A DNA stretch of 64,000 nucleotides, from assembly GCF_964204645.1 (NCBI RefSeq), contig NC_134029.1:15866950-15930949 (forward strand). The letters are read 5' to 3'. How positions within the stretch are numbered: position 1 is the first letter of the stretch; each line of letters opens with the position of its first letter. The position numbers were made by a program, and so were the translations under genes. The notes under the pieces are model-generated. The model saw only the letters and a list, made by a program, of their open reading frames with translations. It had not been told where the DNA came from and ran no database searches. The stretch is from Tubulanus polymorphus. Taxonomy: Eukaryota; Animalia; Nemertea. Of this stretch, positions 1 to 36,830 are shown in pieces.

Positions 1-1691
1 AAATGATTGATAACATTTTCATTTCTATAATGATAATATTCACTTTCAATTAGTTCTGGATAATCAGATTTAATATATAAACCGAAAGCAGCAGCTGATT
101 GATGAATCTTTTTAATAGTATTTGTTATTGGCGGTTCATCTGAAAAATCATTTTCATTAGAATTTAATTTCTTTCTTTTATAATATATTTCTTTTCTATC
201 GTGATCAGTTAGTTCCTTATTTAATGATTCAAAATCTCCATATATAACAAATGGAACTTTATTTTTGTAATCATATTTTTTGAATTCTAATATTTTATCT
301 TTTTCATTTGGTAAAACTAATTTACAATAATCATGATTTTCACATAATTGTTTATGATTTAATAATGTACTTTCATTACTGAATTTATGTAAACATTTTC
401 TACATAGATATATTTTATTATGGTGATCACTTTCTGTTCTAAAGAATAAATCTATTTGTTTAATCCACATATAATGATTCTCATAATATAATATATCTAT
501 AACATCGTTTGAATCATAATCTTTTGATAGGTATAAAGGTTCTAATGTATAATGTTTTATATTGTTACCTTTTGTATTTGGTAATTTGATTAAATCAAAT
601 ACATTTATCTTTATATTATTATCTCTTTCTATTTTTGGGATGTTTTTAATTATAACAGGATACTTATCTATCTTATAATTATTTTCAAATTGTTTATAAT
701 TTGTTAATCTATAAGTATGTTTATTATAGTCTTCAACTGGGTGTAAAGAACTTATTATAGCCCATAGAAAACATTTATCATCTTCATTTTGTACATTTAT
801 TACAGCATTAGTTTTAAATGGTAGTTTAATATAACTTGATGCTTCAATATCTGGTTCTTTATAATATGATACATTATTTTCATCAATTGGTTTTGATTTA
901 GTTAACTTATTATATTTTGTGTTATAAACATGTAAAGTCATAAATATTATCTCATCAAATATTAAACCAGACCCTTCAAAATATTTCTCTTCTATTTTAG
1001 TTTTTACATCATTATAACATTTATCTAATTTATCATCTATATGTTGTTTATATATAATATGTTGTGAATGAGAATTTATATTATATATTGGTTCATCTTC
1101 AGATTTTATGAATTTAACTTTAGAAAATATACTTATTTTAGGATATTCAACATCAGTTATTATTTTTATTATTTCTTTCATATTTTCTAAATGTTTTTTA
1201 TTTTCTTCTAATGTTTTTCCTTTATGAAATTTAAACTCAATAGCTGCTGGACCAATATCACTTTTAAATGCTTCGGTTATCTCTATATCTTTTTTATTAT
1301 CTAATGAATTAATATATTTTCTTACATCTTCCATGTATGGTCTTTTATTGTTTAATTTATTTGTTATGCTTTTAATTGTCTTCTCTTTCTTATCATTATC
1401 TTTATCGAAATAATCTTCACCTAAAATATCATTATTCTTATTTCTAATATGACTTTTAGATTTTAAATGTTCTTTATAATATCTTTTATCACTGAATGAT
1501 TGATTACATGTATCACATTTATATATTTCTTTTTCATTCTTTAATTCATCTAATTTAGTTTCTAATATATCATCTTTATATTCTAGTTTCAATTTATTCT
1601 CTAAATGTGTTTTAGTTTTATTGTGTCTTGCTTTTTGGGATTTATCTATATTGATATTACATGTTGGGCAGTAGTACTTATTCGCTTCCAT
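1..1691 (-). CDS. Protein-primed family B DNA polymerase (pPolB), N-terminal part; continues beyond the window start
   Basis: Manual translation from ATG at 1691 (MEANKYYCPTC...), open to base 1 and therefore missing from the ORF track. Contains two N-terminal C2H2-like fingers, EGSG, INVQNEDDKCFLWAI, CRKCLHKF...HKQLC and the ExoI motif VPFVIYGDFES typical of Polinton PolB. Confidence 0.88.
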   Translation of the reverse strand, partial: MEANKYYCPTCNINIDKSQKARHNKTKTHLENKLKLEYKDDILETKLDELKNEKEIYKCDTCNQSFSDKRYYKEHLKSKSHIRNKNNDILGEDYFDKDNDKKEKTIKSITNKLNNKRPYMEDVRKYINSLDNKKDIEITEAFKSDIGPAAIEFKFHKGKTLEENKKHLENMKEIIKIITDVEYPKISIFSKVKFIKSEDEPIYNINSHSQHIIYKQHIDDKLDKCYNDVKTKIEEKYFEGSGLIFDEIIFMTLHVYNTKYNKLTKSKPIDENNVSYYKEPDIEASSYIKLPFKTNAVINVQNEDDKCFLWAIISSLHPVEDYNKHTYRLTNYKQFENNYKIDKYPVIIKNIPKIERDNNIKINVFDLIKLPNTKGNNIKHYTLEPLYLSKDYDSNDVIDILYYENHYMWIKQIDLFFRTESDHHNKIYLCRKCLHKFSNESTLLNHKQLCENHDYCKLVLPNEKDKILEFKKYDYKNKVPFVIYGDFESLNKELTDHDRKEIYYKRKKLNSNENDFSDEPPITNTIKKIHQSAAAFGLYIKSDYPELIESEYYHYRNENVINH

Positions 1692-1923
1692 TTTAATATA
1701 AAATTTTTTTTTAAATTGATTTTAGAAGTTCAATGATTTATATCATGTATTATTTCAATCATACTTTACTAACACTTTTAATGTTTAAAAATCTAACTCA
1801 TACAAATATGAATATTGAAATAATGTTGTAAATATATCTATATATCTATTCTATAAGAGCTTACACTTTTATATTGAATAATCTGTCAATTTAAATGTTA
1901 TTCGTGTATATGTTTATTTTAAG

Positions 1924-13091: not shown

Positions 13092-13543
13092 AGCGGCGAG
13101 AGCGTTAAGATGGCATCGTCAAAGGATTGAATTTAAACAGACGATAAATTGATGGAGAATTTACAATATTTACAGGATTGTAAGTGACGAGTTTATCGGC
13201 AGCCCATGGCCGACTGACTACCCGGCCCCCGGGTGCGTCGGCACCCGGGACTCACTGAGGGCGGGATGTCAAAAACCACTGCAGCGATCCCGGGGTCAGA
13301 CGACCCGGAGGCCCGTGTCTTAAATAGAAAGTAAAATTGTCTTCTTACATGATCTGTGCGATTTACAGCGTCCGATTCGTAAAACGGTGAAGAAGCAGCA
13401 AGAATGAGTTTCTAATGTGGCTCTGCCAGAGCCAAGTTGCCAATGAGCGCGATTGCGCTAAATTTATAGTTTTCATGCGGTCAACGCACGCGGTGATTGG
13501 TCAAGCGTGACGAGCAGTGATACGCTCCGCGGACAAAGTAGGA

Positions 13544-14949
13544 TGTAGCGAAACTAGCGGATTTCGCCGTACATTGGCGCTAAATTTAAAATCACCTTCT
13601 CCCAGATTTCACCGCTCTGCTCCTATCTTATAATATATTATCCTGTTAATGTCTTTTAACTGTATTTATTCGGCGAGACCGTGTTGTATCATTTTATAAA
13701 TGTCCGTGTTTTGTAATTGGGTCGATGTTTCGCGACCGGTTGTTCCGGGTCCGCGTTTATTCATTTTATTTAACCCTTCTGGTTGAATTGGATTTGTAAT
13801 TATTACTTATATCTTCCGAGTGCGGGGTTCGAACCCTTTCAACTCATTTATTACTTTAAGAACATTTATCGCTCATGTATATTATAATATTACCTTTGTG
13901 ATGATATTTTAAACTATTCTTTGTATCTCTCGTGTCCGCCGTGACCTTTTGCAGCTGGCGTGCGGTTGCCCGGCTCCGCTCTCATTGTCGCTGGAACTCA
14001 GCCAACCTCGAAGTCACGTGGCACGCGTAACCAATCACGCGTGTCCGGGCTTTTGTTCCAGCCAATGAGAGCGCGGCGGGGACAATCGCGGGCTATAAAA
14101 GGCGCGCGGAGCGCGAGATTCAAGAACAAACCGTTCACTCGGACTGTCCGTGCAACTTAAAGCTTGCAAGCGCCGCAGAAAACGTTACGTAATTCTTGTA
14201 TTGACTGCACATACCAGTAATTATATATAATGTAAGAACCTGCCCGTCCGTGTCCCCGTGTCCACATGCGGGCACCCGGACCGCTCTAATTAGTTGTAAA
14301 TAGTATTTGCCGTTATTGATGTTCAGGGTCGGCGTTGTCCCCGGCGGACGCCGCGTTGTCCCCGGCGGACATGGTTGTTCCCCCTGACGCCGTGTTTGTC
14401 CCGGACTCCGCGTTGTCCGGGCGGGAGCCCTTTTGTATATAGTAACCGTGTTCGGAATGACCGACTGTGTAATTGTAAATAGTGTTTGGAAATTAATTCG
14501 AGGCTTGCATCGGATTTCGGGCGTTTATAGCTGCAAATAAATATATATTAGTTAGTAATTCAAAATTAGCATCGGGCCGTTTCTTTGAGTTATCGTGGAC
14601 TTGATCGGAGTGAGGAAGAGAGTCAGAGGCAAGTAGTCTAACTTGTAGAACACGAGGAATCCGGTCAGCTGAGGAGAGGCCGGAGTCACGCTACCGACAT
14701 TTTGTCCGGCAGAGGATTCCAGCTGAATTACTCGCCTCCAAGAGGAGGACGAGCGGACCCGGACGTACCCACCAACGGTGAAGAGGCACGAAGAGATAGG
14801 GGGCGCCCCGAGAGGATACGGGCCGTGTGTGAGGCCTAAGTTGGGTGGAGGCGGGACAAGCACAGCTGCGCAGGAGTTGCTTGTCCCCCGCGAAATCCAA
14901 ATATTACTGAGAAGCTATTTTGGTTACCGTGTCCACGGAATCCGTTACA
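13544..14949 (+). repeat. 5' LTR (1406 bp)
   Basis: TGTAGCG...GTTACA; CCAAT boxes, TATAAAA at about 14095, AATAAA at about 14536; matches 24504-25904. Confidence 0.96.
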
Positions 14950-14951
14950 AT

Positions 14952-14967
14952 TGGTGGCAGCGGTGGG
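14952..14967 (+). promoter_or_regulatory. Primer binding site, tRNA-Leu
   Basis: TGGTGGCAGCGGTGGG, complementary to the 3' end of metazoan tRNA-Leu (CCCACCGCTGCCACCA), 2 nt after the LTR. Confidence 0.85.
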
Positions 14968-15241
14968 TTATTCGTGTGAAGAACTGATGGCAAGACGATG
15001 TCTACAAGAAACCGCTGGACGCTGGGCGTCGATATATTTTCTTTTCTACTTTCTATTTTTATGACTCTCGTCCTCACTCCGCGTTCCGCGATTGACTCCC
15101 GTTATGATAGGCCGCGTTATATTTGCTGTAACTGATGCACATTGTTATGTGTAATTAATGCTATTTTCTCCCCCCCCCCCCTTCACATATATATCAATCA
15201 TAAATTCCTCGACTACTGATTCAATAGAATAATACGACGAG

Positions 15242-16297
15242 ATGACGGACAATTCTAAAGAGATGACCGTTACGGACGACGGAGAGGTTGAGTTTACGGT
15301 GACCAGCCTTCCTCAAGGTGGAGACGGACCCGAACACGAAGATGATTCGTCCTCGGACGACGGAGAGATGGGCACCGCGATCGAGGACAACGACGAGGTC
15401 GACGATCATCCCGAGAGAGGAGATGGACCCCACGTGCAGTTTAGACTGCCGGCAAGCGCACCACGAGTCAGAAGACCGAAACCATACCGACCAGCGACGA
15501 TGCCAGATAGATACGACGGGAAGGCGAGCTGGACAGAATTCGAGGTCCACTTCGAGTCCGTGGCCAATCTGAACCGATGGGACGACGATGAAAAAGCGAC
15601 TTATCTTGCCGTCAGCCTCAAGGGCGAGGCTCAACAAGTTTTGCGGGAACTGACGATCGAAGAGCGGGAAGATTTTGAAAGCCTGTGTTCGGCGTTGAGG
15701 TTGAGATTTGGACCGCAAGTCCGAGAAGAACTGTATACGGCCGAACTCAGAGCCAGAACCAGAAAGCCAGGCGAAAGTCTCCCGGAGCTGGGACATGGGA
15801 TCAAACGGCTGGTGGCTCTAGCGTACCCTGGTACCGACAAGAAAACCACAGATACACTGGCAAGAGCTCACTTCATGGACGAACTGCAAGACGGCGAAAT
15901 GCGAATGCGGCTCTTTCAAGCAAGCCCGAGAACTCTCTCCGACGCCATCACCGCAGCACTCGAGGTCGAAACGTTCCGTCGCATCGAGGCTCGTAGAGAG
16001 AAAACCCAACTCTCCAGCAAGAAAATAGCGGCCACTCGAAATATTTCAACATCACAGAGTGACGCGGTGGTCCAAGGGATGTCCGACCAGATGGCGAAAT
16101 TGATCGAGGCTTTGAACACCATGAGCACAAAGATGACGTCAGAGGAACAACCCGCTACCGGGAACTACGTCAGTTCGCACCGAACGAATGCTACGTGCTA
16201 TAACTGCGGACAGCCCGGACACTTCGCTCGGAACTGCAGGCAGCGTTCGGGAAACGACAACGCTCCGGTTCCAAGGGGCACCGACCGGAGATATTAA
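15242..16297 (+). CDS. gag: Gag polyprotein
   Basis: 351 aa; PDRYDGKASW capsid-like region and CCHC knuckle CYNCGQPGHFARNC. Confidence 0.93.
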   Translation: MTDNSKEMTVTDDGEVEFTVTSLPQGGDGPEHEDDSSSDDGEMGTAIEDNDEVDDHPERGDGPHVQFRLPASAPRVRRPKPYRPATMPDRYDGKASWTEFEVHFESVANLNRWDDDEKATYLAVSLKGEAQQVLRELTIEEREDFESLCSALRLRFGPQVREELYTAELRARTRKPGESLPELGHGIKRLVALAYPGTDKKTTDTLARAHFMDELQDGEMRMRLFQASPRTLSDAITAALEVETFRRIEARREKTQLSSKKIAATRNISTSQSDAVVQGMSDQMAKLIEALNTMSTKMTSEEQPATGNYVSSHRTNATCYNCGQPGHFARNCRQRSGNDNAPVPRGTDRRY

Positions 16298-16315
16298 GCG
16301 AGATTGATCGGCCCC
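16249..16315 (+). promoter_or_regulatory. -1 programmed ribosomal frameshift signal (slippery heptamer plus H-type pseudoknot)
   Basis: G_GGA_AAC in the gag frame; 7-nt spacer; stem CTCCGGT/ACCGGAG; loop GGGGC can pair with GCCCC (16311-16315); the -1 frame is open into the protease. Confidence 0.8.
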
Positions 16316-19300
16316 AACACGACCCCGTAGGCAACGTGCTGAACTACCATCCGGGGAAGAACTCAGACAACGGACTATATGCAATCACCGATGTTGGTAA
16401 CGTGAAGATGACTCTGCTAGTCGACACGGGTGCTTGTACCCCGATAATCTCAAGCAAAGCATACACCGCTATACCGGAATCATACCGACCTCGGCTTAAA
16501 CCAACAACTCTCAGGCTACTCGGGGCTGACGGTGGCGATCTCTCTGATGACGGAAGAACGACGGTTTCGTTGACGTTCGGACAACGTAAGTTCCGTATGA
16601 GCGTTGTCGTCGCGGGCATCGGAGAAGACGGAATTCTCGGCATGGATTTTTTTGAAGAGAACTAAATCATTCCTCGATGTCGGCAATTCACTTCTAATCT
16701 GCGAAAACGAAGAGATCGTCCTCTATCCGAAGAGATCAATCGAACCAGAAGCAGAGTTCCTCGTGAGAACACTGGACAGCGTAGAGATATCCCCACGTCA
16801 CCAAGCCACAATTCCTATAACCGTTTCGGGCAGCCAGGGGATACCGATGCTAGGCGTCGTCGAGGGAACTACCAGATACGAGGGTGGTGATCTGGCAATC
16901 GCAAGAACATTAATTGACACCACAACAGGGGACACAGCGAGTTGTCTGCGCGTTATGAACTTGGGAGTCGAACCGATTGTTCTCCCTGGATCGACAGTGC
17001 TTGGCCGACTAACCGCCGTTTCTACAATCCGCGCGATGGACTCAAATGAAGAAAACACTTGTCCAGATGACGAAGACCCAAAGACAAGCGTCCCCGATCA
17101 CGTACAACAGCTGTACGAAACCAGCATCGAACGTTTGAACCCGACGGAGGCCACTCGGTTTGCGGAGCTTTTGACCAAACACTCTAACGCGTTCTCCAAA
17201 ACCGACGAGGACCTGGGACAAACGGACCTCGTGCAACACGAGGTGAATACAGGGGACCACGCCCCTATAAGACAACCACCCAGGTTACCGCCGCTCAGTA
17301 AACGGAAAGAGACCGAGGACTTGGTGCACGACATGCACAGACGAGGGTTGATCGAACGATCCCGCTCCCCTTGGTCCTCTCCGATAGTCCTAGTGACAAA
17401 AAAAGACGGAAGCACGCGGTTTTGTGTGGATTATAGGCGCCTCAACGACGTGACTACGATTGAAAGCGTAGCCATTCCCAACATCAATCGGTCGCTAGAA
17501 TGCCTAGGTGGAGCCATGTGGTTCAGTACTCTCGATTTGAACTCCGGATACTGGCAGGTGGGACTGAGTGAAACTGCCAAGGAGAAATCCGCTTTCAGCA
17601 CCCAGAGTGGCCTGTGGCAGTTTACCGTTTTACCGTTTGGTATGTCCGGAGCGCCTGGAACGTTGAACGACTTATGGAAATGGTACTTGTCGGCCTGCAG
17701 TGGGAGGTCTGTCTGATTTACTTAGACGATATACTAATATTCAGCAGTACCGTAGATGAGATGCTCGAAAGGCTGGACTTAGTCCTCACCAAACTGGAAG
17801 AAGCAGGGCTCAAATTGAAACCTCGGAAATGCTCCCTGTTTCAACAGTCTGTGGCTTTCCTCGGTCACGTAGTCAGCGCAGCCGGAATTCAGACGGACCC
17901 ATCAAAAATCGAATGTATCCAGACCTGGCCAACACCCTCCAACGTTAGAGAAGTTCGAAGTTTTCTCGGTCTCGCCACCTATTATCGACGATTCGTCCCG
18001 GGGTTTGCAAAAATAGCCAGCAGCCTTCATCATCTGACTGCTAAAGACCAGAGATTTGTTTGGACGGAGGAACACGAGTCGGCGTTTCGCAATTTGAAAG
18101 ACAGGTTGACTAGTGCACCAATACTAGCTTACCCGAACGCTACTGACCCATACGTCCTAGACTGCGACGCGAGTGCTTTTGCCATTGGCGGCGTCTTAAG
18201 CCAAGTACAGGAGGGCGAAGAAAAACCAATTGCCTACGGAAGTCGGACGCTTAATAGGGCCGAACAGAACTACTACGTAACACGCAGAGAGTTGCTGGCA
18301 GTAGTGTACTTCGTTAAGTACTACAAACACTTTCTGACCGTCCAGAACTTCCTGATACGGACCGACCATAGCGCCCTACGGTGGCTGATGAGCCTCAAGG
18401 AACCTGAAGGACAAATTGCTCGCTGGCTTGAGTCTTTGTCGTCATTCCATTTCCAGATCGAATACCGCAAGGGAACACATCACGGAAACGCAGACGGACT
18501 GTCTCGCATTCCCTGTCGACAGTGCGACAAAATTGGTTACCTCCACATGGTCCAGCACGAAGGATTCGATTCGGAAGACGACTCGACCGACACCAAACTA
18601 CAGGTTGCTTGTTCACCGCAGCATCGGCATATCCGAGTGACTAACCCGACATTCGGCGAAATCCCCGAGCCTTGGGACCTGACAGAGCTTAAGACAGCCC
18701 AATTTTAGGACGAAGATCTGAGGTGGCTCATTGAACTTCAACGCGAAGGAAAATCAAGGCCCCAGTGGCAAGATGTAGCACCAAAAAGCAATCAAGCGAA
18801 ACGCTATTGGTCTGAATGGGACTTACTTCAGATCAAGGATGGTATACTTTTCCGCGAATGTAGACCTCACCGAGGCGGGTTTTCCCAACTGGTCGTTCCC
18901 CCACCACTCCGGCGGATCGTATTCGACCAACTTCATTCTGGTCGTGTCGGGGGTCACCAAGGCATCGAGAAAACACTTTCCAAGGTGCAGCGACGGTATT
19001 TTTGGCCAGAGATGCGTGACGACATCGATCTGTGGGTGAAACAATGCGAGGTGTGTCCCCGGAAGAAACCGCCGCCGAAAAGATATCTGGCGGAGCTACA
19101 GTCATACAATGTTGGATCCCCCATGGAAAGAGTAGCGGTCGATATCATGGGCCCTCTGCAGGAAACCACGGCAGGGAACCAATACATTATAGTCATAATG
19201 GACTACTTCACGAAATGGGTAGAATGTTACGCTGTACCGGACATCGAGGCCAAGACGGTAGCTGACAAACTTGTGACCGAATTCTTCAGCCGTTTCGGAG

Positions 19301-20100
19301 TGCCGAGGGAGCTACACTCAGACCAAGGCTCAAACTTCCAGTCCCATCTCTTCCGCGAAATTTGTATCCTGCTGGGGATCCATCAAACCAGATGCAGCCC
19401 CTACCGTCCCCAAAGCGACGGTATGGTGGAACGCTTCAATCGGAGCCTTAAAACAATGTTGTCTCTAACAACAACTGACGACCCTTTTGATTGGGACTTA
19501 CAACTTCCCTACGTCTCGATGGCCTATCGTTCCGCCCGGCACGCCACTACAGAAGCGTCACCAAACTACCTGATGCTTCTGAGGGAGATCGATCTACCCC
19601 TAGATCTGATCGTCGGACTCCCTCCGAAAGATCGGTATCCTTCCGTCAGCGACTACACGGCCAGCGTACGAACCCGAATAACAACGGCACACAGAGATGC
19701 CTGCAAGGCGCTCCTGAAGAACACATCGCGACAGAAGGCACTATACGACCAAAAACGTCACGGGAAGCCGTACAACGCCAGCGACCGGGTTTGGCTCTAT
19801 CAGCCCAAATTGACCGACGGAAATCCTAATCGCAAACTCCAGTTGAACTGGACTGGGCCGTATACAGTAATGGAACGACTCTCAGATGCCCTATATGAGG
19901 TGCGGGACAAGCTGTCCAGCGCTCCTAAGATCGTTCACTTTGACCGACTTAAGCCGTATTTAGGGGTGCAATACCGATCTCTACTGAACGTCGAGCCCGT
20001 AACAGACAAACTGACGATGACAGAAGATACAGAGAGTAGACGCAAAACCAGCGGCCGTACCTGCCCGAAACGTCAACGCCCAGAATATATCTACTTGTAG
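16255..20100 (+). pseudogene. pol: Pol polyprotein (protease, RT, RNase H, integrase), disrupted by two compensating 1-nt frameshifts and one TAG
   Basis: LVDTGA protease, RFCVDYRRLN, YLDD, CDASAFAIG, HHCC and DDE integrase, WTGPY. Breaks at about 16650, about 17663 and 18706. Confidence 0.93.
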
Positions 20101-20448
20101 GCGTTGTCTACTGTTTAAAACAGCAAAGTAATCAATCGCTCTTTGTTCTTTTATTTTTAGGTCGTCAAATTTCAAATGTCGTGGTTGTCGGGACCATTTC
20201 CGTTCAGTGGAGAACCTGAAGCGCCATGAAACTAAATGCGAAGCGGTGACGCACGAGGGCGTAAAATACGAATGTAAGAAGTGCGGCCAGACGTCACCAT
20301 GGCACTTCTCAGTGCGTAATAAAGATCGCGGAGGAGGGGTGGGACCAGCCGCCTGAGATCAGCATTGAGTGCGCAGGGGACAAGAGAAAGGTGGAGTTGA
20401 CAGGTGCGGTGCGTGAAGAGAAGAGAAGGAAGAAAAAGGTAGAGAGGA

Positions 20449-23282
20449 ATATTTGCTGAATTATCTTATTCAAAAAAAAAGATTATCGTTGGTGTTTTGT
20501 ATCGTGCGCCTGAATCTGATTTAACAAACTTTATTAATGAATTCAATAGATTTACACATATGGTTAACAAGGAAAATTTGAATGTTATATTAATGGGTGA
20601 CTATAATATTGACTTTAGCAAAATTGGAAAAAATTCTTTGTATGAGAGTTTCATAAATATTGCGAGCTCTAATTCATTTTCACCGCTTATTAATTTACCC
20701 ACTAGAGTTACTGAGCAATCTGCTACGGTAATAGATAATATATTAATTAACTTTAGCCAAGAGTCTAAAATTTTAAGTGGAGTCTTCCTTAACGATATCA
20801 CAGATCATTACCCGATTTTTGCTGTGATGGATATTTTAAATGAGAAATATAATCCCAATTCCCCTATAATTCAGATCCGTGATATTAATCCAAGGTCAAT
20901 CGAAACATTTTCCCGATCATTGTTAGCCAGCGATTGGCAGTGTGTTTATAATAGCAATAGTCCAGAAAAGTCTTGTAACGAATTCTATAATATTGTAAAT
21001 ACGTGTTATGAAGCATGTTTTCCGGTTAAGTGTATTACACCCAAACAACACAATAAACCATGGATTACAGCAGGGATCAAAACGTCTATCAAAATTAAGG
21101 ATAAATTATATAGAAAATATATAGGTAAAAGAAGTATTGACAGCAAAGCCAAGTATTGTAAATATAGGAATTTCTTAAACTCTTTACTTAGAAAAAGTAA
21201 AGAACGTTATTACAAAGAAAAATTTTTATCGTGTCAATATGATCCTAAGGAAACCCGGAAAATAATCAATTCATTACTTAATAAGACCTAAAATAAGAAG
21301 TGTAATTCCGAGTTTTTACACAACAACAGGGTTATTACTGATGAACTAGAAATTGCAAACCAGTTCAATGATTATTTTGTAAATATTGCTTCATCTCTTG
21401 AGTCTAAAATTCCAAATTCCACTCACGATTTTAAACAATATCTTGGCGATAAAAACGACGAAAACTTTTTTCTCTCACCTACATACCCCTCAGAAGTGGA
21501 GGAAATTGTATCTAACTTACAAAGTAAACCATCGTGTGGATGTGACAATATCAGCAATAAATTACTCAAATCTATTATTTCCGCTATTTCAAGTCCCTTA
21601 ACTCATATCTTTAATTGTAGCTTTGTCACAGGTATAGTTCCCAATATTTTCAAAATCGCTTACATAACCCCTATTTACAAAATGATTGATAAGTCTTCTT
21701 TTAGTAACTATCGCCCTATTTCTGTTCTACCTTCAATTTCAAAGGTGTTGGAAAAACTTGTTTACAATCGGTTGATAAAATTTCTTGACAAATATAAAAT
21801 CTTAAATGACCGGCAGTTTGGTTTTAGAAAAAAGTACTCAACTTCCTCTGCATTAACGTACATTACTGATAAAATAGCAAACTCTCTAGATAATGGTTTA
21901 ATAACCGCTGGTGTTTTCATAGACTTATCAAAAGCATTTGACACAAGTAATCACAAAATCCTAAATTCAAAATTAGAACATTACGGTATACGTGGCATAC
22001 CATATCTCTGGTTCCAAAATTATCTAACTAATAGAAAACAAGCAGTGAAGTTCAATAACTGTTTATCCTCAACTCTCGACATTAATTCTGGTGTCCCTCA
22101 AGGCTCTATCCTAGGGCCGCTATTATTTTTGATTTATATCAACGACTGCCCTTCCTCCTGTAAAGCATTAGAGTCAATTCTTTTTGCTGATGATAGCAAC
22201 TTTTTCTACAGCCATCATGATCCAAAATTTGTCGAATACACCTTGAATTCAGAGTTGGCTAATCTCTTGCAATGGTTTCGGGCTAATAGATTGTCTGTAA
22301 ATGTAGGAAAAACCCAGTATATCATTTTTGGTAATAATGACCATATTAAACTCACCATTCGTCTGGATGACCAAATTATCAAACGTGTTGATTCTACAAA
22401 GTTTCTAGGTGTTATATTTGATCACAATTTAACCTGGAAGGAGCATATATCTTTTACGTGTAAAAAAGTATCTCGTGGAATTGGTATTATCAATAGATTA
22501 AAGTACATTTTACCTTCAGATATTCTAAAAAATCTCTACTATTGTTTCGTTCACTCACACCTACATTATGCCAATCTCATTTGGGGAAATGCCTGTAAAA
22601 TTTATTTGCAACCATTATACATCCTTCAGAAAAAAGCCCTTCGGATAATCACTCGTTCAGATTGGCTTGAACATACATCCCCGATTTTCAGGAAATTAGA
22701 AATTCTTAAACTGGATGACATTTACAGACATCAAATTGGATCGCTTGCCTTCTTAAGTATCAACCTTTTATTACCGACTATTTTCAAAGATTTTTTCATT
22801 CTCAGGAACACCCAAAATCTTCGTTCTAGTCGCAGGCCTATGGCCTTATCAATAGAATTTGCTAAATCTAAATACAAGTATACATCTATGAAAATTCAAG
22901 GAGCGAAATTCTGGAATAGTTTACCAGAGAAATTAAAATATCTAGACTCGATATCCAACTTCAAAATTCAGCTTCAGCGTTATCTTCGTTCCACTTATTA
23001 ATTATCTGTGTAATCTTTTATAACGTGCCACATTACTTTATCTGCAATTGTCTATGTATATTATGTATATTTGGTTTGTTTGGTAAACTAGGAATGAATG
23101 TGAATTGGTGTATATGTCTGCGTGTATGTGAGAGTGTATGGACGAGGGATTAGGACTAGATTAAGCCAATTATGGCTTCTCCTAATTCCTCGCATAATTT
23201 ATTGGTACATTGTTTTCCATATATTGTGTATTCATTTGTAAACTCTGTAACAATCTTTTATGCAAATAAATCATATCATATC
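20449..23282 (+). mobile_element. 5'-truncated CR1/L2-group LINE (partial EN plus RT) inserted in Gypsy ORF3
   Basis: ORFs 20497-21291 (GDYN, TDHYP) and 21496-23001 (NYRPISVL, DLSKAFD, GVPQGSILGP, FADD); AATAAA followed by a (CATAT)n tail. Confidence 0.93.
21496..23001 (+). CDS. LINE ORF2 reverse transcriptase domain
   Basis: Canonical non-LTR RT motifs; separated from the EN portion by an in-frame TAA at 21289. Confidence 0.88.
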   Translation: MEEIVSNLQSKPSCGCDNISNKLLKSIISAISSPLTHIFNCSFVTGIVPNIFKIAYITPIYKMIDKSSFSNYRPISVLPSISKVLEKLVYNRLIKFLDKYKILNDRQFGFRKKYSTSSALTYITDKIANSLDNGLITAGVFIDLSKAFDTSNHKILNSKLEHYGIRGIPYLWFQNYLTNRKQAVKFNNCLSSTLDINSGVPQGSILGPLLFLIYINDCPSSCKALESILFADDSNFFYSHHDPKFVEYTLNSELANLLQWFRANRLSVNVGKTQYIIFGNNDHIKLTIRLDDQIIKRVDSTKFLGVIFDHNLTWKEHISFTCKKVSRGIGIINRLKYILPSDILKNLYYCFVHSHLHYANLIWGNACKIYLQPLYILQKKALRIITRSDWLEHTSPIFRKLEILKLDDIYRHQIGSLAFLSINLLLPTIFKDFFILRNTQNLRSSRRPMALSIEFAKSKYKYTSMKIQGAKFWNSLPEKLKYLDSISNFKIQLQRYLRSTY

Positions 23283-24326
23283 AAGGAAGAAGGTGTAACA
23301 GCAGAGATTAAGAAGAAAGAAGAGAGGAAGGAAGAAGGTGTAACGACCGAGATTAAGCAGAAAGAGAAGAGGAAGGGTGAAGGTGCGACGACACAGAATA
23401 AGAAGATAGAAGAGAGAGAAAAAGAAGGAGAGACTGAAAGCAAAGAGAAGGAGGAAAGCGTAGCGAACGAAGAGAGAGGAGCCGGAGATGGAACAGAATG
23501 GACCAAGAGAATAGAAGACGACTTGACAGCGGCAGACACTACAACCGTTGAAATCACCCCTGACGGCAGCTCGAACGTCGGCAAACCAGGAGATATCGCG
23601 TCTGCAAAACCCGGAAGAAGTTTGACCGAAAGAATAAGTTATGGAAGAAGGAGAAAACTTATGATAAAAAGGAGCCTGGAACTTAGTCGGCGCGCGAGGG
23701 AAAGAGATGAGTTGGAAAAGAAGAAGATATCGGAAGAGGCGCGCAAGGCGGCAGTAGAACAGCGGAGGAGGGTGGAAGAGGAGGCAAGGGAGAAGAGAGA
23801 GACAGAGAGAAAGAGGCTGGAAGAGAAACGGAGAGAAGAAGTACAGCGTTTGGAGAAAGGACCGAGAGAGCCGGAGAACGTACCCGCGTATTCGCCAGAG
23901 ATACTCGGCTCGAAATTTCAGGATTGGTGGGGGAACCAGACCCCAACATACGTGCCGACCACGATCGAAAAGCCGATACCGAAGGCCGATATCCCGGCCC
24001 CTATACAGCCGGCGATACTCAGTTCGGACGAGCCGCGGCCGGTGAAAGAGAACAGATGCAACCCAGAATCGAGAAGGGTCCTCGCGCATGTACACCCGAC
24101 CGTCCATGGCCGCCCGGCTACTTTCCGGGAAGTTCCGGGAGTGCCCGTTCGATGCCCGTTTTGCCAAAAGATGGCCCGCGCTTCGGGGATTTCCTGGACG
24201 CCACCAGCACGAAGTTCATTGCAGCCGTTTTCGGAAGTTCACGTCCATCCACTCGAGACAGGGGACATGATTATTTTCGGGTTCGACGATGTGCCGATCG
24301 ACTGCATAGCGTGTGTACTGGAAGAA

Positions 24327-24466
24327 CGATGAGCGTCAGTCATCGTCAAAACGTCGAATGATTGTCCGTCCGCGAGTAATTCGAATGTCCATCTATTTAG
24401 AATATTACGATGAGCGTCAGTCATCGCCGAAACGTCGAACGATTGTCCGTCCGCGAGAAATTCGAT
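24327..24466 (+). repeat. Duplicated unit of about 60 bp in the Gypsy 3'UTR
   Basis: ACGATGAGCGTCAGTCATCG...GTCCGTCCGCGAG.AATTCGA twice, 80 bp apart; each copy has a CGATGA/TCATCG hairpin. Confidence 0.8.
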
Positions 24467-24503
24467 TTTTCACGCGGGGCGCGTGAAAGCTGGGAGGGGG
24501 TGA

Positions 24504-25904
24504 TGTAGCGAAACTAGCGGATTTCGCCGTACATTGGCGCTAAATTTAAAATCACCTTCTCCCGGATTTCACCGCTCTGCTCCTATCTTATAATATATTA
24601 TCCTGTTAATGTCTTTTAACTGTATTTATTCGGCGAGACCGTGTTGTATCATTTTATAAATGTCCGTGTTTTGTAATTGGGTCGATGTTTCGCGACCGGT
24701 TGTTCCGGGTCCGCGTTTATTCATTTTAACCCTTCTGGTTGAATTGGATTTGTAATTATTACTTATATCTTCCGAGTGCGGGGTTCGAACCCTTTCAACT
24801 CATTTATTACTTTAAGAACATTTATCGCTCATGTATATTATAATATTACCTTTGTGATGATATTTTAAACTATTCTTTGTATCTCTCGTGTCCGCCGTGA
24901 CCTTTTGCAGCTGGCGTGCGGTTGCCCGGCTCCGCTCTCATTGTCGCTGGAACTCAGCCAACCTCGAAGTCACGTGGCACGCGTAACCAATCACGCGTGT
25001 CCGGGCTTTTGTTCCAGCCAATGAGAGCGCGGCGGGGACAATCGCGGGCTATAAAAGGCGCGCGGAGCGCGAGATTCAAGAACAAACCGTTCACTCGGAC
25101 TGTCCGTGCAACTTAAAGCTTGAAAGCGCCGCAGAAAACGTTACGTAATTCTTGTATTGACTGCACATACCAGTAATTATATATAATGTAAGAACCTGCC
25201 CGTCCGTGTCCCCGTGTCCACATGCGGGCACCCGGACCGCTCTAATTAGTTGTAAATAGTATTTGCCGTTATTGATGTTCAGGGTCGGCGTTGTCCCCGG
25301 CGGACGCCGCGTTGTCCCCGGCGGACATGGTTGTCCCCCTGACGCCGTGTTTGTCCCGGACTCCGCGTTGTCCGGGCGGGAGCCCTTTTGTATATAGTAA
25401 CCGTGTTCGGAATGACCGACTGTGTAATTGTAAATAGTGTTTGGAAATTAATTCGAGGCTTGCATCGGATTTCGGGCGTTTATAGCTGCAAATAAATATA
25501 TATTAGTTAGTAATTCAAAATTAGCATCGGGCCGTTTCTTTGAGTTATCGTGGACTTGATCGGAGTGAGGAAGAGAGTCAGAGGCAAGTAGTCTAACTTG
25601 TAGAACACGAGGAATCCGGTCAGCTGAGGAGAGGCCGGAGTCACGCTAACGACATTTTGTCCGGCAGAGGATTCCAGCTGAATTACTCGCCTCCAAGAGG
25701 AGGACGAGCGGACCCGGACGTACCCACCAACGGTGAAGAGGCACGAAGAAATAGGGGGCGCCCCGAGAGGATATGGGCCGTGTGTGAGGCCTAAGTTGGG
25801 TGGAGGCGGGACAAGCACAGCTGCGCAGGAGTTGCTTGTCCCCCGCGAAATCCAAATATTACTGAGAAGCTATTTTGGTTACCGTGTCCACGGAATCCGT
25901 TACA
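24504..25904 (+). repeat. 3' LTR (1401 bp), preceded by a polypurine tract GGGAGGGGG
   Basis: Near-identical to the 5' LTR; by eye about 5 substitutions and 2 small indels. Confidence 0.96.
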
Positions 25905-28058
25905 AGAGCACGCGAAATCATTCGACCGTGACGAATGATAAAACCCTAAATAAAGACTTCATACGCGCGAAATAGAATTAAGTTCAATAATATTTTAAGA
26001 TTAACGCGAAAAATGACGACTATAAGACCGATACGGAGATATTTACTACAAAATAAACCGGAGTCAACCGCACCACCGCGAAAACGCTCACACGGAAGTG
26101 AGGCGGCGCCAGCGAACGGCGTCGTAAAAACGAGCGTAAACACGAGCAGGGCTGGGGAATTCTCCGGCGACGAGACGGAACCAAAACGGCCCAAAATCAA
26201 AGAAATTGGGTCTCAAATATAAAAAGGTGAACACACACTAATAGGTAGGTGGAGAATAAAAGAATGGCCTGGACAGGCGCCGAAAAATCGCTTATATCAC
26301 CGCGATGCGGCGTGGCAACACCGCGGGGGCCTGCCCAGCCCCAGGTCGTAAAATTGGAATTTTACAGAACCAGAACTGCCAAAAATCTGTCAGATTGAAA
26401 TTGAGCCGAAAAGATCCCGAAACATCGCCGCAGAACACTCAGCCCCGTCCCGGAATACGTACATCTAAAAAGAAACAATGAGAAAAGAACGGCTTAAGGC
26501 CATTCCGAAATACATAATATAATTTCACCAAAAGACCTACATTTTGTGGTCAAACCCACCCCAGATATAGACAATTTTCGCCACAGTATAGTACTAACTT
26601 TGATTGAAAAAAAATTAAATTTACTTCACTTTTAAATGTTTTATTTAGCTGCATATCTACAAGAACCAATATTTACAAGATATTTACAATATTGCAGCAA
26701 CATATTCACAATAATACAAGAAAGCACAATCTTCAGCACAGTTATCATTATTCATTTGTCCACTAATTTCGCAGGTTGCGTCCAACACGACGCAAAAAGT
26801 CAACTATACTTGATTTACCATCGCGTTGCTCACAGAGGTTTTTCAGCCGATTTTGTAGCTGAACGTAATTTCGTTTGACACGTTTTTTCGGTGGATTCCC
26901 AGCTTCCATTTGTGCCAGAACAGTTTCAACAACGCAATTTTCCTGCTGCAAGCATTCGATAGCACGCCAGATAGATGGACGTTTTGTTCCGACCAATATA
27001 CGGAATTTATTGTTCCAAGCCTCTGACAAATTGTTTGTTCTGTCCTCAGAATTTATGGTAACAGTATGCATGTTCCAGGTCTTTGGGGGATACTGTGGGG
27101 GAACACGCTTTAAACGGAACAGCCCACCTGGAGCACGGATTTTACGGTACGTTGAAACAAAGTTACTGCCGAAGTAATCAACAAGCTCAGTTGCCTCTTC
27201 TGGAGCAGTCTCGCGTATATGATTGTATCCGGATTCAACATCATCCACAGGCAAGAAGGCCAGTCCATTTAACTTTCCACAGAATAACTGAAAATCTTTA
27301 TCGTCCCTGTACATAGTAGCAAGTCCAAGGTTTTGAATCTAACGATATATACACTGGGATAAATGATAGAAGCATCCTCTTATTTCAATATCACCAAACA
27401 CAGATTTTGTTGCATTGAGAACTGCCAACTCAAAATCTATCACAACAGTTTTTCGGCGAGAGAAATAGTCCCTTCTCATCGCACTTTTCACATAATACGG
27501 TGAGAAATTCTACATAAGTTTCCTGAGTTTTCCTTTGAAGGAATGCATAAACGGTTGAAATAGCAGAATCAGCCAGAGGGACATGGATTACATACAACTG
27601 TTCGAACAAAGTTGGTGCCATCTGGAAATTTCCGTCCATGAATCACGTATCAGCTTCGCAGAGTTTTTTCAAACATATGTCTGTTGCAAAAATCATGATT
27701 CTTGATGTTGTGCTCGCGTTATCGTACATCAGGAACTCTTCTCCATCCTCTCGGGTTAGAGACCATGTATCTGTAATGAACAGCTCATCATGGGTTGCAG
27801 GATCTTTTGGATATTTCTTGCATCGAACTCTTTGCATTACTTTCTTGCATGTATCAGCGTGAGGTAATCGGCTTTGTACATCTGGACCCGGTTCCACAGT
27901 TCTTAATTAACTTTTAACTCAGAGTTAAATTCCCTAACTCAGAGTTAAAAGTAACTCGGAGTTAAATCCGGTTCCACAGTTGTGAGTTAAATTTAACTCT
28001 AGAGTCAAATTCCTTAACTCAGGGTGAAATTCTAACTCTGGGTCAGACCTGAATTAAA

Positions 28059-29882
28059 ATGCTTAACTCAGAGTTTAAAATGGCGGCATTCTACTTATTA
28101 GCGGGTAGAGAAGCCAAGAATAAAGAATATCGAAGGATTACAAATCAACTCGAAATCACGGATGTTGAATGCTATAATAGATATCGCTTTACAAGAACGG
28201 GTGTGCAGAGAATCGTTGAAATATGTAGACCATTGATGGCAGAAAAAACGTGCAATCCTGGATTGCCTTTGACTGTCGAACTGCAAGTTCTTATGGCACT
28301 TCGATTTTATGCCAGTGGCTCATTTTTGGAGGTAATCGGAGATAGTTTTGGTGTATCGAAATCAACAGTTTCGAGATCTGTTACTCGTGTAACCGACGCA
28401 CTTTGCTCGAAGAAAGCAGATTTTATCAAGTTTCCGAGAGGCCCAGCAGAACTGGCAAAAACGAAATCTGATTTTTATGAAGTCGGAAATTTCCCCGGTG
28501 TTATTGGTTGTGTTGATGGAACACATATACGTATTCAAGCTCCAAGAAATGAAATTGAAAGAGACTTTGTGAACCGAAAAAGTTTTCATTCGATAAATGC
28601 ACAGGGTGTGTGTAATGCCGATGGTAAGTTTAAGGCCGGAAATTAACAGGATACTGTCCGATTTGGCAATGTTCTGCGCGTAGTGACTTTTTTTCTTTTC
28701 AATGCAGTGTACCATCTAAGTAATTTGTCAGAAACAAATGCAAACCCCTCGCTTAGGGAGATTCTCACTGGTGAGAATCAAAAAATTTAACTTACCAGTA
28801 CGGTGCCGGCCCTTGATCCTTGTTTGTGATGTATCATTATTCCCATAAAAACATAAAAAGTGCCCTGCTTCTATCCATTATTGCATGCAGGACCGTTTAC
28901 AGAGTCGAAATGAAGCAATCTAGCGTAGGCCCTGGGCCAAATGCTCATGGATCAATATTTATAAGTACTTATTATCAATATTTTAGTTACATGATTCTTC
29001 AACCCCCATGCTGTGTTTATGCGCGTATGCCCTCTCCCTCTTGCTTAGAGAAAATCTTACGTATAGAAACTGACAAGACAAAAAGAACATATTGTTTGTA
29101 ACATTTAAATTTACCCATTGGAATAAAAATCGCAACTTCCAAGGAAAAGATCTTATTTTCCTGATAGACAGTCTGACCAATCCTAGAATCTCTTTAGTTT
29201 ACACGATGCATTCAAACTTGCACGAGCAGCAAGGCTGTATGCTGTTATTTGGACTTTAATTTAAAATCGAAAATAATTTCAACAAAACTAATTGTTCTGT
29301 CAATAGATTCTTTTTATTTCAGGATTGTTCGTTGATTTTGTCGCCCGTTGGCCTGGCAGCTGCCATGATAGTTTCATCTTTAGATCGTCAAGTCTCGGAA
29401 GGTGAGCAATGCCCCCCAGTACATAACAGAATCCTGCGTCAAAATGTATGTGCACATATATTCATGATTTGATTTTAAGGTTCTTAGATGAAAACCCATG
29501 CAGTGAATACCTGCTGGGAGATAGCGGCTACGCGTTGAAGCGATATCTGCTAACTCCGTATGGCAATCCTATAGGTCAACCGCAGGAAAATTACAATAGA
29601 TCGCACAAGAGGACACGATGCGCCATAGAAAGATCATTTGGTTGGCTGAAACGCAGATTTCACTGTCTACATGGAGAATTACGCCTGGATCCACGCAAGG
29701 CATGCCGAGTCATAACAGCCTGTGCTATACTGCACAACTTAGCAATTCTCATGAAAGAACCAGTTTTTGATGACAATGATATTGTATATGACGAGGAGGA
29801 ACCGCTGCAGCCAATAAACGAACCCGGAGATCTACATGGAGCACACATGAGACGATACGTAACAAACACCTTTTTTAATTGA
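28059..29882 (+). CDS. Harbinger (HARBI1-like) DDE transposase, 3 exons (28059-28623, 29323-29401, 29480-29882)
   Basis: [37 protein letters not shown]; GT-AG introns that keep the reading frame. Confidence 0.92.
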
Positions 29883-35704: not shown

Positions 35705-36069
35705 GCTTGAACAAACACATTACCAATTACTGAAATACTGTAACTTATATCGGTCACATTACTAGACAGGTTCAGATATGTCGGCCCGTGTCCAAGAACG
35801 GGTTAATCCTATCGCGGTTACGAGCTCGGTGTCGCGTGAAGCGCTTGCCTTTCCTTTCAAAAGATCATTTACATGCACCGCCGAGATTTTTACAGTCCCG
35901 TAGCGTTATAACGAGCTTTGACCATAGTATGGGCGTGTGTTTGAAATGTGACCATTTCGTTTCGTATTTCGGTTCGTATTTTAGCACTACTTTCTTAATT
36001 TCGTAGTTTCGTTTCGTAATTTCGCTTCATATTTCGTAATTTCGTAGTTTCGTACTTTAGCAGGACCCG

Positions 36070-36830
36070 TTCCTACTAGCATAACAGAAGTTCGGATATT
36101 TGTTGGAGCGGTGAATTATTTATCTATGTACCTTCCTAGTTTACAGAAACATCTCGAACCATTTTACGCGTTAACAAAGAAGAACAAGCCTTTCGTTTGG
36201 ACTGAACAGCATGAAGAAAACGTTGAAGTCATCAAGAATATGTTAACTAATCCACCAGTCTTGTGTGCTCCTCAAGGTAATGGTGATTTTTCGCTATTTT
36301 CAGACACTAGTCGAAGCATGACAGGAGGTGCACTTTATCAGAAGATAAAAGGAAAAGACAGATTGGTTGCATATCACTCCAAGGTTCTTCCTAAAGCGGC
36401 TAAATCCTATTCCGTCAGTGAATTGGAATTGTATGGATTATGGTTAAACATTCTTGCATTTAAAAATATTTTGAGATCAATTTCGTTTCAATGTTATGTC
36501 GATCATACGTCATTGGTATACATTTACAGGTCGATTTTTAGGATGCAAAAGTTACTCGAACGTCTTTCACCATATTCATTTGATCTTTCCTATTGCAAGG
36601 GTTCAGACATGGTTATCGCAGATTTTCTTAGTAGAGCACCTCGCGATAATGACAGAGAATTAGATCGAGTTAAGCCTGTTGCGCTCGCTACTCAAGATAC
36701 TGATACTATTTTTCCATTTCAGATTGGTTCGATCGAGAGACCAGTAACAAGACGATTTGCGAAAGAAAAGAATATTAATATTTAATCGATTTTTCCAGAA
36801 AAACAGGAGAGATCTACAGTTCGACAGGAT
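36070..36830 (+). pseudogene. Gypsy pol fragment (RT C-terminus and RNase H)
   Basis: FVWTEQHE, LFSDTS, YSVSELEL, VDHTSL, ADFLSR. Confidence 0.85.

Follow-up and report, generated by a model that had tools for sequence, protein, structure and literature searches.

We analyzed a 64,000-nucleotide stretch of the Tubulanus polymorphus genome (hereafter the window) and found that pol of a Ty3/Gypsy LTR retrotransposon is followed by a third gene, ORF3, which encodes zinc fingers; the pattern of differences in its finger exon indicates that this gene is real and under purifying selection. Splicing from a donor inside the LTR is the likely route to ORF3. Finger genes after pol in related elements suggest that a zinc-finger ORF3 is a trait spread over many Gypsy lineages, with a layout common to the relatives.

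The element, all of whose features lie on the forward strand, has two LTRs bounded by TG and CA, a primer-binding site and a polypurine tract (read from the sequence), and gag followed by PR-RT-RNase H-IN (Pfam). Comparison of the LTRs placed the 5′ LTR at 13544..14949 (1406 nt) and the 3′ LTR at 24504..25904, with 5 mismatches and 2 indels between them (99.6% identity). The primer-binding site TGGTGGCAGCGGTGGG at 14952..14967, which we take to be of the tRNA-Leu type, is near-identical in three related elements (L032, L039, and L052), and the polypurine tract occupies 24490..24503. The gag gene (15242..16297) has one CCHC knuckle (Pfam zf-CCHC: 2.6e-8; Retrotrans_gag match weak), and pol (16204..20100, from ORFs and Pfam) is split into four pieces by two frameshifts and one stop, the integrase stop TAG ending at 20100. 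A 5′-truncated LINE with endonuclease and RT (20448..23282, Pfam), presumably CR1/L2-like, interrupts the region after pol; it is missing from sibling contigs and is foreign to the Gypsy element. The copy in the window is thus decayed. The element was inserted within another repeat, where contigs of the empty site differ, and the flanks do not match as a target-site duplication (TAGGA at 13539-13543 vs. AGAGC at 25905-25909). The missing duplication, together with the near-identical LTRs and the disablements, may be due to insertions in the host repeat having recombined with each other; alternatively, a defective copy may have been mobilized, or the assembly may be in error. Two 66-nt direct repeats (89%) lie at 24326-24472, across the ORF3 stop and the 3′ UTR.

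ORF3 in the window consists of three pieces with at least 445 residues in total. The first (20161..20287) holds a C2HC finger and the first half of a C2H2 finger and ends at a deletion; the second (20289..20447) holds the His end of finger 2, an acidic linker, and a basic KRRKKK run, a candidate nuclear signal; the third (23283..24332, 349 aa) holds three 45-nt repeats, an E/K/R-rich helix, a Pro-rich linker, and a CxxC...CxxC end (CPFC...CIAC). An initial annotation of this DNA, made from the letters alone, had the frame continue past the LINE to CPFC...CIAC and a stop at 24332, and the frame is indeed open over 23283-24332. The same annotation put the break near 20317, which is incorrect: it lies at about 20287, within finger 2, and the His pair follows just past it in another frame.

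Three sequencing runs on the same species, all of one study and covering no more than two samples, supplied the sibling contigs; contig depth is not a measure of copy number. The deepest contig of each run has neither break: it is identical to the window around the break where aligned, is longer at 20287, where the longer form puts the frames on either side in register (judged by eye), and does not contain the insertion at 20448-23282. Because the sibling contigs lack both the deletion and the LINE, the two breaks belong to the window copy. Near the break, two diverged contigs carry indels of their own, which possibly shift their frames, and one diverged contig alters the first Cys of finger 2; these may be decayed copies. 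Over 20162-20280, 8 of the 13 differences in a diverged contig are silent in the finger frame (P = 0.008 against a neutral share of 0.26, omega ~0.2), compared with 4/13 and 2/13 when the same differences are read in the other frames. Of 16 differences in the linker of the second piece, the expected frame makes 7 silent (P = 0.08). The claim of a third gene in the env position is therefore confirmed by selection on the finger exon and by the break-free sibling contigs, and the comparison of sibling copies that had been proposed as a check came out in its favor for the finger exon, the region of the predicted splice acceptor being unchanged as well (20151-20180 is identical in a diverged contig with 31 other differences over 20151-20449).

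Both of the fingers claimed initially are present, the first being of C2HC rather than C2H2 type. They fit C-x2-C-x12-H-x3-H/C with weak scores, finger 2 being broken in the window copy; Pfam gives the first piece finger families only, all weak (zf-C2H2: 0.0079, below the cut-off), and the third piece no family. Classical C2H2 transcription factors carry at least three fingers with TGEKP-type linkers, and protein or RNA is a frequent target of C2HC fingers; ORF3 has two fingers joined by a longer linker unlike TGEKP. No credible homolog of the C-terminal 150 aa was found in two large searches, and a word-indexed search with the C-terminal domain returned no match. A HMMER search returned two matches, which we rejected as repeat-rich and unrelated. 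This domain also has no credible fold (best Atlas value 0.85 with low recognition; single-sequence fold pLDDT 41). The supposed E/K-rich coiled coil is real as a charged stretch, which by eye resembles a single α-helix more.

The highest 19-residue hydropathy values in the three pieces were -0.79, -0.07, and 1.5, and the scan revealed no signal peptide or transmembrane segment in ORF3. Hydropathy and Pfam thus agree with the earlier claim and indicate that the product is not Env. That claim also held that there is no furin site, which is inexact, as one R-x-K/R-R match exists in the C-terminal piece; it is irrelevant because there is no signal peptide. We predict a soluble nuclear protein.

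The best relatives of the window integrase are 42-47% identical to it, and the few named ones belong to bivalves, spiders, a sea cucumber, a coral, and a fish. Related elements were sought in metagenome contigs with an integrase alignment, and the best 80 of 558 confirmed stretches were taken. Among those of the 80 with at least 500 nt after pol, a loose finger pattern within 1.2 kb occurs on the sense strand in 22/54 and on the other strand in 8. In other relatives from the same best 80 of 558, pol directly adjoins the 3′ LTR with no third gene between. Before a profile was built, inspection by eye removed three of the 22, namely L030 and L078, which were short or doubtful, and L082, which was later recovered at E = 4.9e-5; L050 was added. 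Purifying selection is also visible in the L061/L075 pair (omega = 0.17 over 303 codons), dN/dS being saturated in most pairs of relatives. On a quick integrase tree built from the fetched loci only, with no reference clades, the ORF3 label requires 4 changes (shuffled mean 13.6, with 0/500 shuffles as low) and spans deep branches, the backbone and the position of the window being poorly placed; the nearest rows to the integrase of the window include elements without ORF3.

Searched with a profile built from relatives only, the finger frame of the window is the best of its 1082 ORFs (E = 2.3e-5), only slightly ahead of a finger ORF elsewhere in the window that is unrelated (1.8e-4 on the same profile). 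None of the relative loci was matched by tblastn with the ORF3 pieces of the window, which match the relatives solely via the generic finger profile. ORF3 of the window and the finger genes of the relatives probably share descent, a reading against which stand the generic nature of the finger match and the poorly placed position of the window on the tree. In leave-one-out tests, only L039 and L052 retrieved their own ORF3 with a clear score. We rejected the idea that the C terminus of the window corresponds to the C-terminal hairpin of the relatives, as the two do not match. Tandem repeats in the LTR (possible binding arrays) were likewise rejected as a feature linked to ORF3, since 7/9 elements with ORF3 vs. 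5/11 without it is not discriminating.

Several relatives carry other ORFs after pol. At L071:5420-7342 a TatD DNase domain (Pfam 8.8e-31) is fused in the post-pol ORF to a region resembling fingers, and our literature search on TatD in Gypsy elements returned nothing of relevance. A short charged helical ORF without fingers follows pol in L044 (5830-6255), L045 (2040-2453), and L048 (5936-6323), whose sister L054 carries a finger. A viral collection yielded 0 loci with a single protein query and 2 with an alignment; in an IMG/VR contig (L001, from 6572 onward), a Gypsy-like integrase precedes an ORF of 668 aa whose leader is hydrophobic and which by eye is probably env-like.

Searching with a profile of five relatives gave 24 proteins (P0123-P0146). 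The best match is 99% identical to the post-pol ORF3 of L032 (L032:5954-6793) and bears, in Pecten maximus, the database name 'zinc finger protein ZFPM2-like isoform X3'. Near-identical copies of this subfamily exist at many loci in Pecten, Argopecten, Mytilus, Crassostrea, and Magallana, where RefSeq files such 'ZFPM2-like / HIVEP2-like' models (e.g., XP_033763094.1, 99% identical to the L032 ORF) as host genes. Dozens of 'ZFPM2-like' and uncharacterized bivalve gene models appear, from their sequences, to be retrotransposon genes, the pol context having been checked at the metagenome loci. The bivalve subfamily has the same C2HC + C2H2 pattern as ORF3 of the window; it is distinct from it, and the two are linked only by slot and finger type. 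Members of the L032 type have a conserved M-x-x-TK-x-TP start and a C-terminal β-hairpin, and AlphaFold gives an intact relative two confident fingers, a low-confidence middle, and the C-terminal hairpin. Most top fold matches of this relative are C2H2 proteins bound to DNA, and no match reaches E ≤ 0.001. The sequence [TVIA]QT, which we take to be an LC8-type motif, occurs in 13/24 members of the subfamily, compared with 3.4 in shuffles (maximum 9).

The sequences given in the initial annotation for the TATA box, LTR donor, and acceptor are all present. A promoter-like stretch at 14030..14101 contains two CCAAT boxes, a GC-rich box, and TATAAAA at 14094, and we infer from spacing that transcription starts near 14122. 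The first ATG after the TATA box lies in the predicted splice donor AT/GTAAGA at 14230..14237 (context ...TATAAT/GTAAGA, with GT at 14232-14233). The unspliced RNA reads ATG-TAA there, a start followed by a stop; after splicing, the AT would supply two letters of the ORF3 start codon. By a rough matrix of donor-site frequencies, this donor ranks 4 among 640 GT/GC sites in 14100-20100 and first within the LTR, its score being moderate on that crude matrix and T at -1 counting against it. No other donor in the top 25 produces a message whose first ATG is in the finger frame, and with none of the 25 would the start codon of gag be joined to that frame. A second, donor-like site of the GC type at 14629 (GAG/GCAAGT, 14626-14634), ~90 nt past the LTR AATAAA, has a similar score and yields no in-frame ATG.

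The predicted acceptor, a polypyrimidine tract followed by TAG/G (20137..20161), reads TTCTTTTATTTTTAG/G at 20160/20161, 60 nt after the integrase stop. It is the most pyrimidine-rich of the 207 YAG sites in the Gypsy element outside the LINE (rank 1, 16/18 pyrimidines). The frame from 20162 reads SSNFKCRGCRDHFRSVENLKRHETKC...YECKKCG without a Met, so the start codon must derive from upstream. LTR RNA would probably be either left unspliced or spliced from 14231 to 20161, building AU/G and giving ORF3.

The relatives bear on this prediction in several ways. Close examination of 20 loci from the best 80 of 558 showed a Met ahead of the fingers in 18 and none in L077 and L038. A strong acceptor, i.e., at least 13/18 pyrimidines within 45 nt before the Met, precedes 11 of the 18, where three backgrounds lead one to expect 1.45, 1.95, and 3.1, some of the 20 loci being kin and hence not all independent. 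L077 has a 15/18 acceptor 9 nt ahead of its first Cys and, having no Met, is a second case needing an upstream start. A donor-like site lies ~75-90 nt past the LTR TATA box in L039, L052, and L032, compared with a donor score of at best 0.6 in four loci (three families) with a TATA box and no ORF3; L071 and L031 have no donor-like site, and most loci are without a usable LTR.

The LTR AATAAA (14537..14542) follows the donor by 305 nt, and the donor would lie in R as delimited by the TATA box and AATAAA. A long R-region stem-loop with ~4.8 copies of a 21-nt repeat (14275..14520; fold and TRF) falls within the predicted intron (z = -2.9, with 2/200 shuffles as good, for a segment chosen after a first fold). 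A hairpin that might mask the donor was rejected, being no better than shuffles (z = -0.5) and also absent in three relatives. Foamy viruses are retroviruses with env and an internal promoter, and their Tas acts on its own element. As in those viruses, the donor of the Gypsy element precedes the LTR poly(A) signal and an accessory gene lies at the 3′ end. The available text on foamy virus describes a major donor that lies in the LTR and precedes its poly(A) signal, and demonstrates U1 suppression of 5′-LTR polyadenylation (PMC3694450); by analogy, the donor-AATAAA geometry would fit such control here, in which RNA structure would free the 3′ site.

We propose that a single LTR transcript would have two fates. 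Left unspliced, its LTR ATG would meet a stop immediately and the RNA would serve for gag-pol and as genome; spliced, it would give ORF3, predicted to be a nuclear two-finger protein. As a guess, this protein would bind the LTR DNA of its own element and promote or protect transcription, and self-association, again a guess, would compensate for just two fingers. That ORF3 is LTR-spliced, nuclear, and acts on its own LTR DNA is our leading reading, held tentatively, at somewhat under even confidence. Slightly more tentative is the extension that a large and old Gypsy group of marine invertebrates consists of 'complex' elements with an LTR-spliced zinc-finger regulator that oligomerizes through LC8 or the charged helix and feeds back on its element as a Tas- or Rev-like switch, its genes possibly serving as a source of host genes.

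The same gene and splice could instead act on RNA, like Cer1 CERV or HIV Rev, by exporting unspliced genome RNA, perhaps via the R stem-loop. The strong acceptor would make the 5.9-kb gag-pol region an intron needing retention, the long stem-loop is downstream of the donor, and CERV does export RNA in another Gypsy element (PMC10309623, available text). According to that text, CERV of C. elegans is a spliced non-Env nuclear regulator in the post-pol slot that is encoded by five exons, part of them read in the gag frame, and contains G and M domains with a C4 loop (PMC10309623). In contrast, ORF3 has a single predicted LTR-to-ORF3 splice and N-terminal C2HC/C2H2 fingers, and in a comparison of layout the gag-shared exons and G and M domains were not seen in it. 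Moreover, the stem-loop was chosen post hoc, both RNAs carry R at their 3′ end as well, and the fold of the relative matches mostly DNA-bound C2H2 proteins. The function of CERV is demonstrated (PMC10309623, available text), whereas that of ORF3 is a guess from its sequence. We therefore prefer action on LTR DNA to CERV-like RNA export, which we consider unlikely; the choice is one of architecture.

ORF3 could also be real and start elsewhere, by way of a different donor or of an internal promoter close to where pol ends, the AT before the donor being coincidental. Five other top-25 sites (19900, 19421, 15524, 15452, and 17707) yield some in-frame ATG, AT is expected ahead of a donor by chance ~1 time in 16, and 18/20 relatives have a Met of their own. 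Each of these five sites, however, has 17 to 74 upstream ATGs in LTR-started RNA, and donor 14232 is both the first and the best in the LTR, which makes a start elsewhere quite unlikely. Less plausible still is that ORF3 steers integration or nuclear entry by tethering to chromatin or to a hub such as LC8. The fingers and basic run, the excess of LC8-type motifs in the related subfamily, and the position of the window copy within another repeat are consistent with tethering, but the protein of the window has no LC8-type motif, and a product spliced separately would not have to enter particles. That ORF3 is a functionless captured host or transposon fragment, as the missing homologs of its C-terminal 150 aa might hint, is most improbable and already largely refuted by the silent-site excess in the window family and relatives and by the same slot and layout in deeply diverged elements.

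Part of the proposed LTR splice to ORF3 has precedents. In the springer subclade of Drosophila, the available text reports env spliced from an upstream AU dinucleotide, with the start codon built at the junction (PMC12992720), which makes the split ATG less surprising. That env is an F-type membrane fusion protein, whereas ORF3 is without signal peptide or membrane segment. Of the interpretation offered initially, the non-Env third gene stands, and splicing from an LTR donor is the likely route to it. Our literature search turned up CERV as the sole demonstrated self-encoded regulator in an animal Gypsy element, as far as the available text of its sources goes. LTR elements of bdelloid rotifers have swappable non-Env ORF3s that encode esterase, exonuclease, coiled-coil, and TM proteins (PMC5408684, available text), and the words 'zinc' and 'finger' have 0 occurrences in the main text of that paper. 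No zinc-finger ORF3 is mentioned in the available parts of PMC13524379, PMC8220671, PMC6238403, PMC2774666, and PMC11952523, and no report of a widespread one in Gypsy elements was found by a search outside which lay Repbase, subscription journals, and supplements. The split AU/G start and a spliced non-Env regulator were therefore known already; what would be new is the spread and mis-annotation of the zinc-finger ORF3.

Simple LTR retrotransposons are usually taken to depend on host regulators. If zinc-finger genes under selection recur in the env slot of many lineages, element-encoded regulation would be common and not a nematode oddity, and scallops, oysters, and mussels offer intact natural ORF3 genes as test cases. 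The mis-filed bivalve models bear on counts of C2H2 expansions and, if the reading is true, ORF3 genes, listed as multi-copy 'host' transcription factors, may seed new host C2H2 genes. Elsewhere in the window, outside the Gypsy element, we observed an AT-rich ORF with two finger-like motifs (1122-1721, reverse strand), a DDE transposase fragment (28053-28646, forward strand) that is presumably Harbinger-type, and a second LTR-element RNase H fragment (36048-36785, forward strand).
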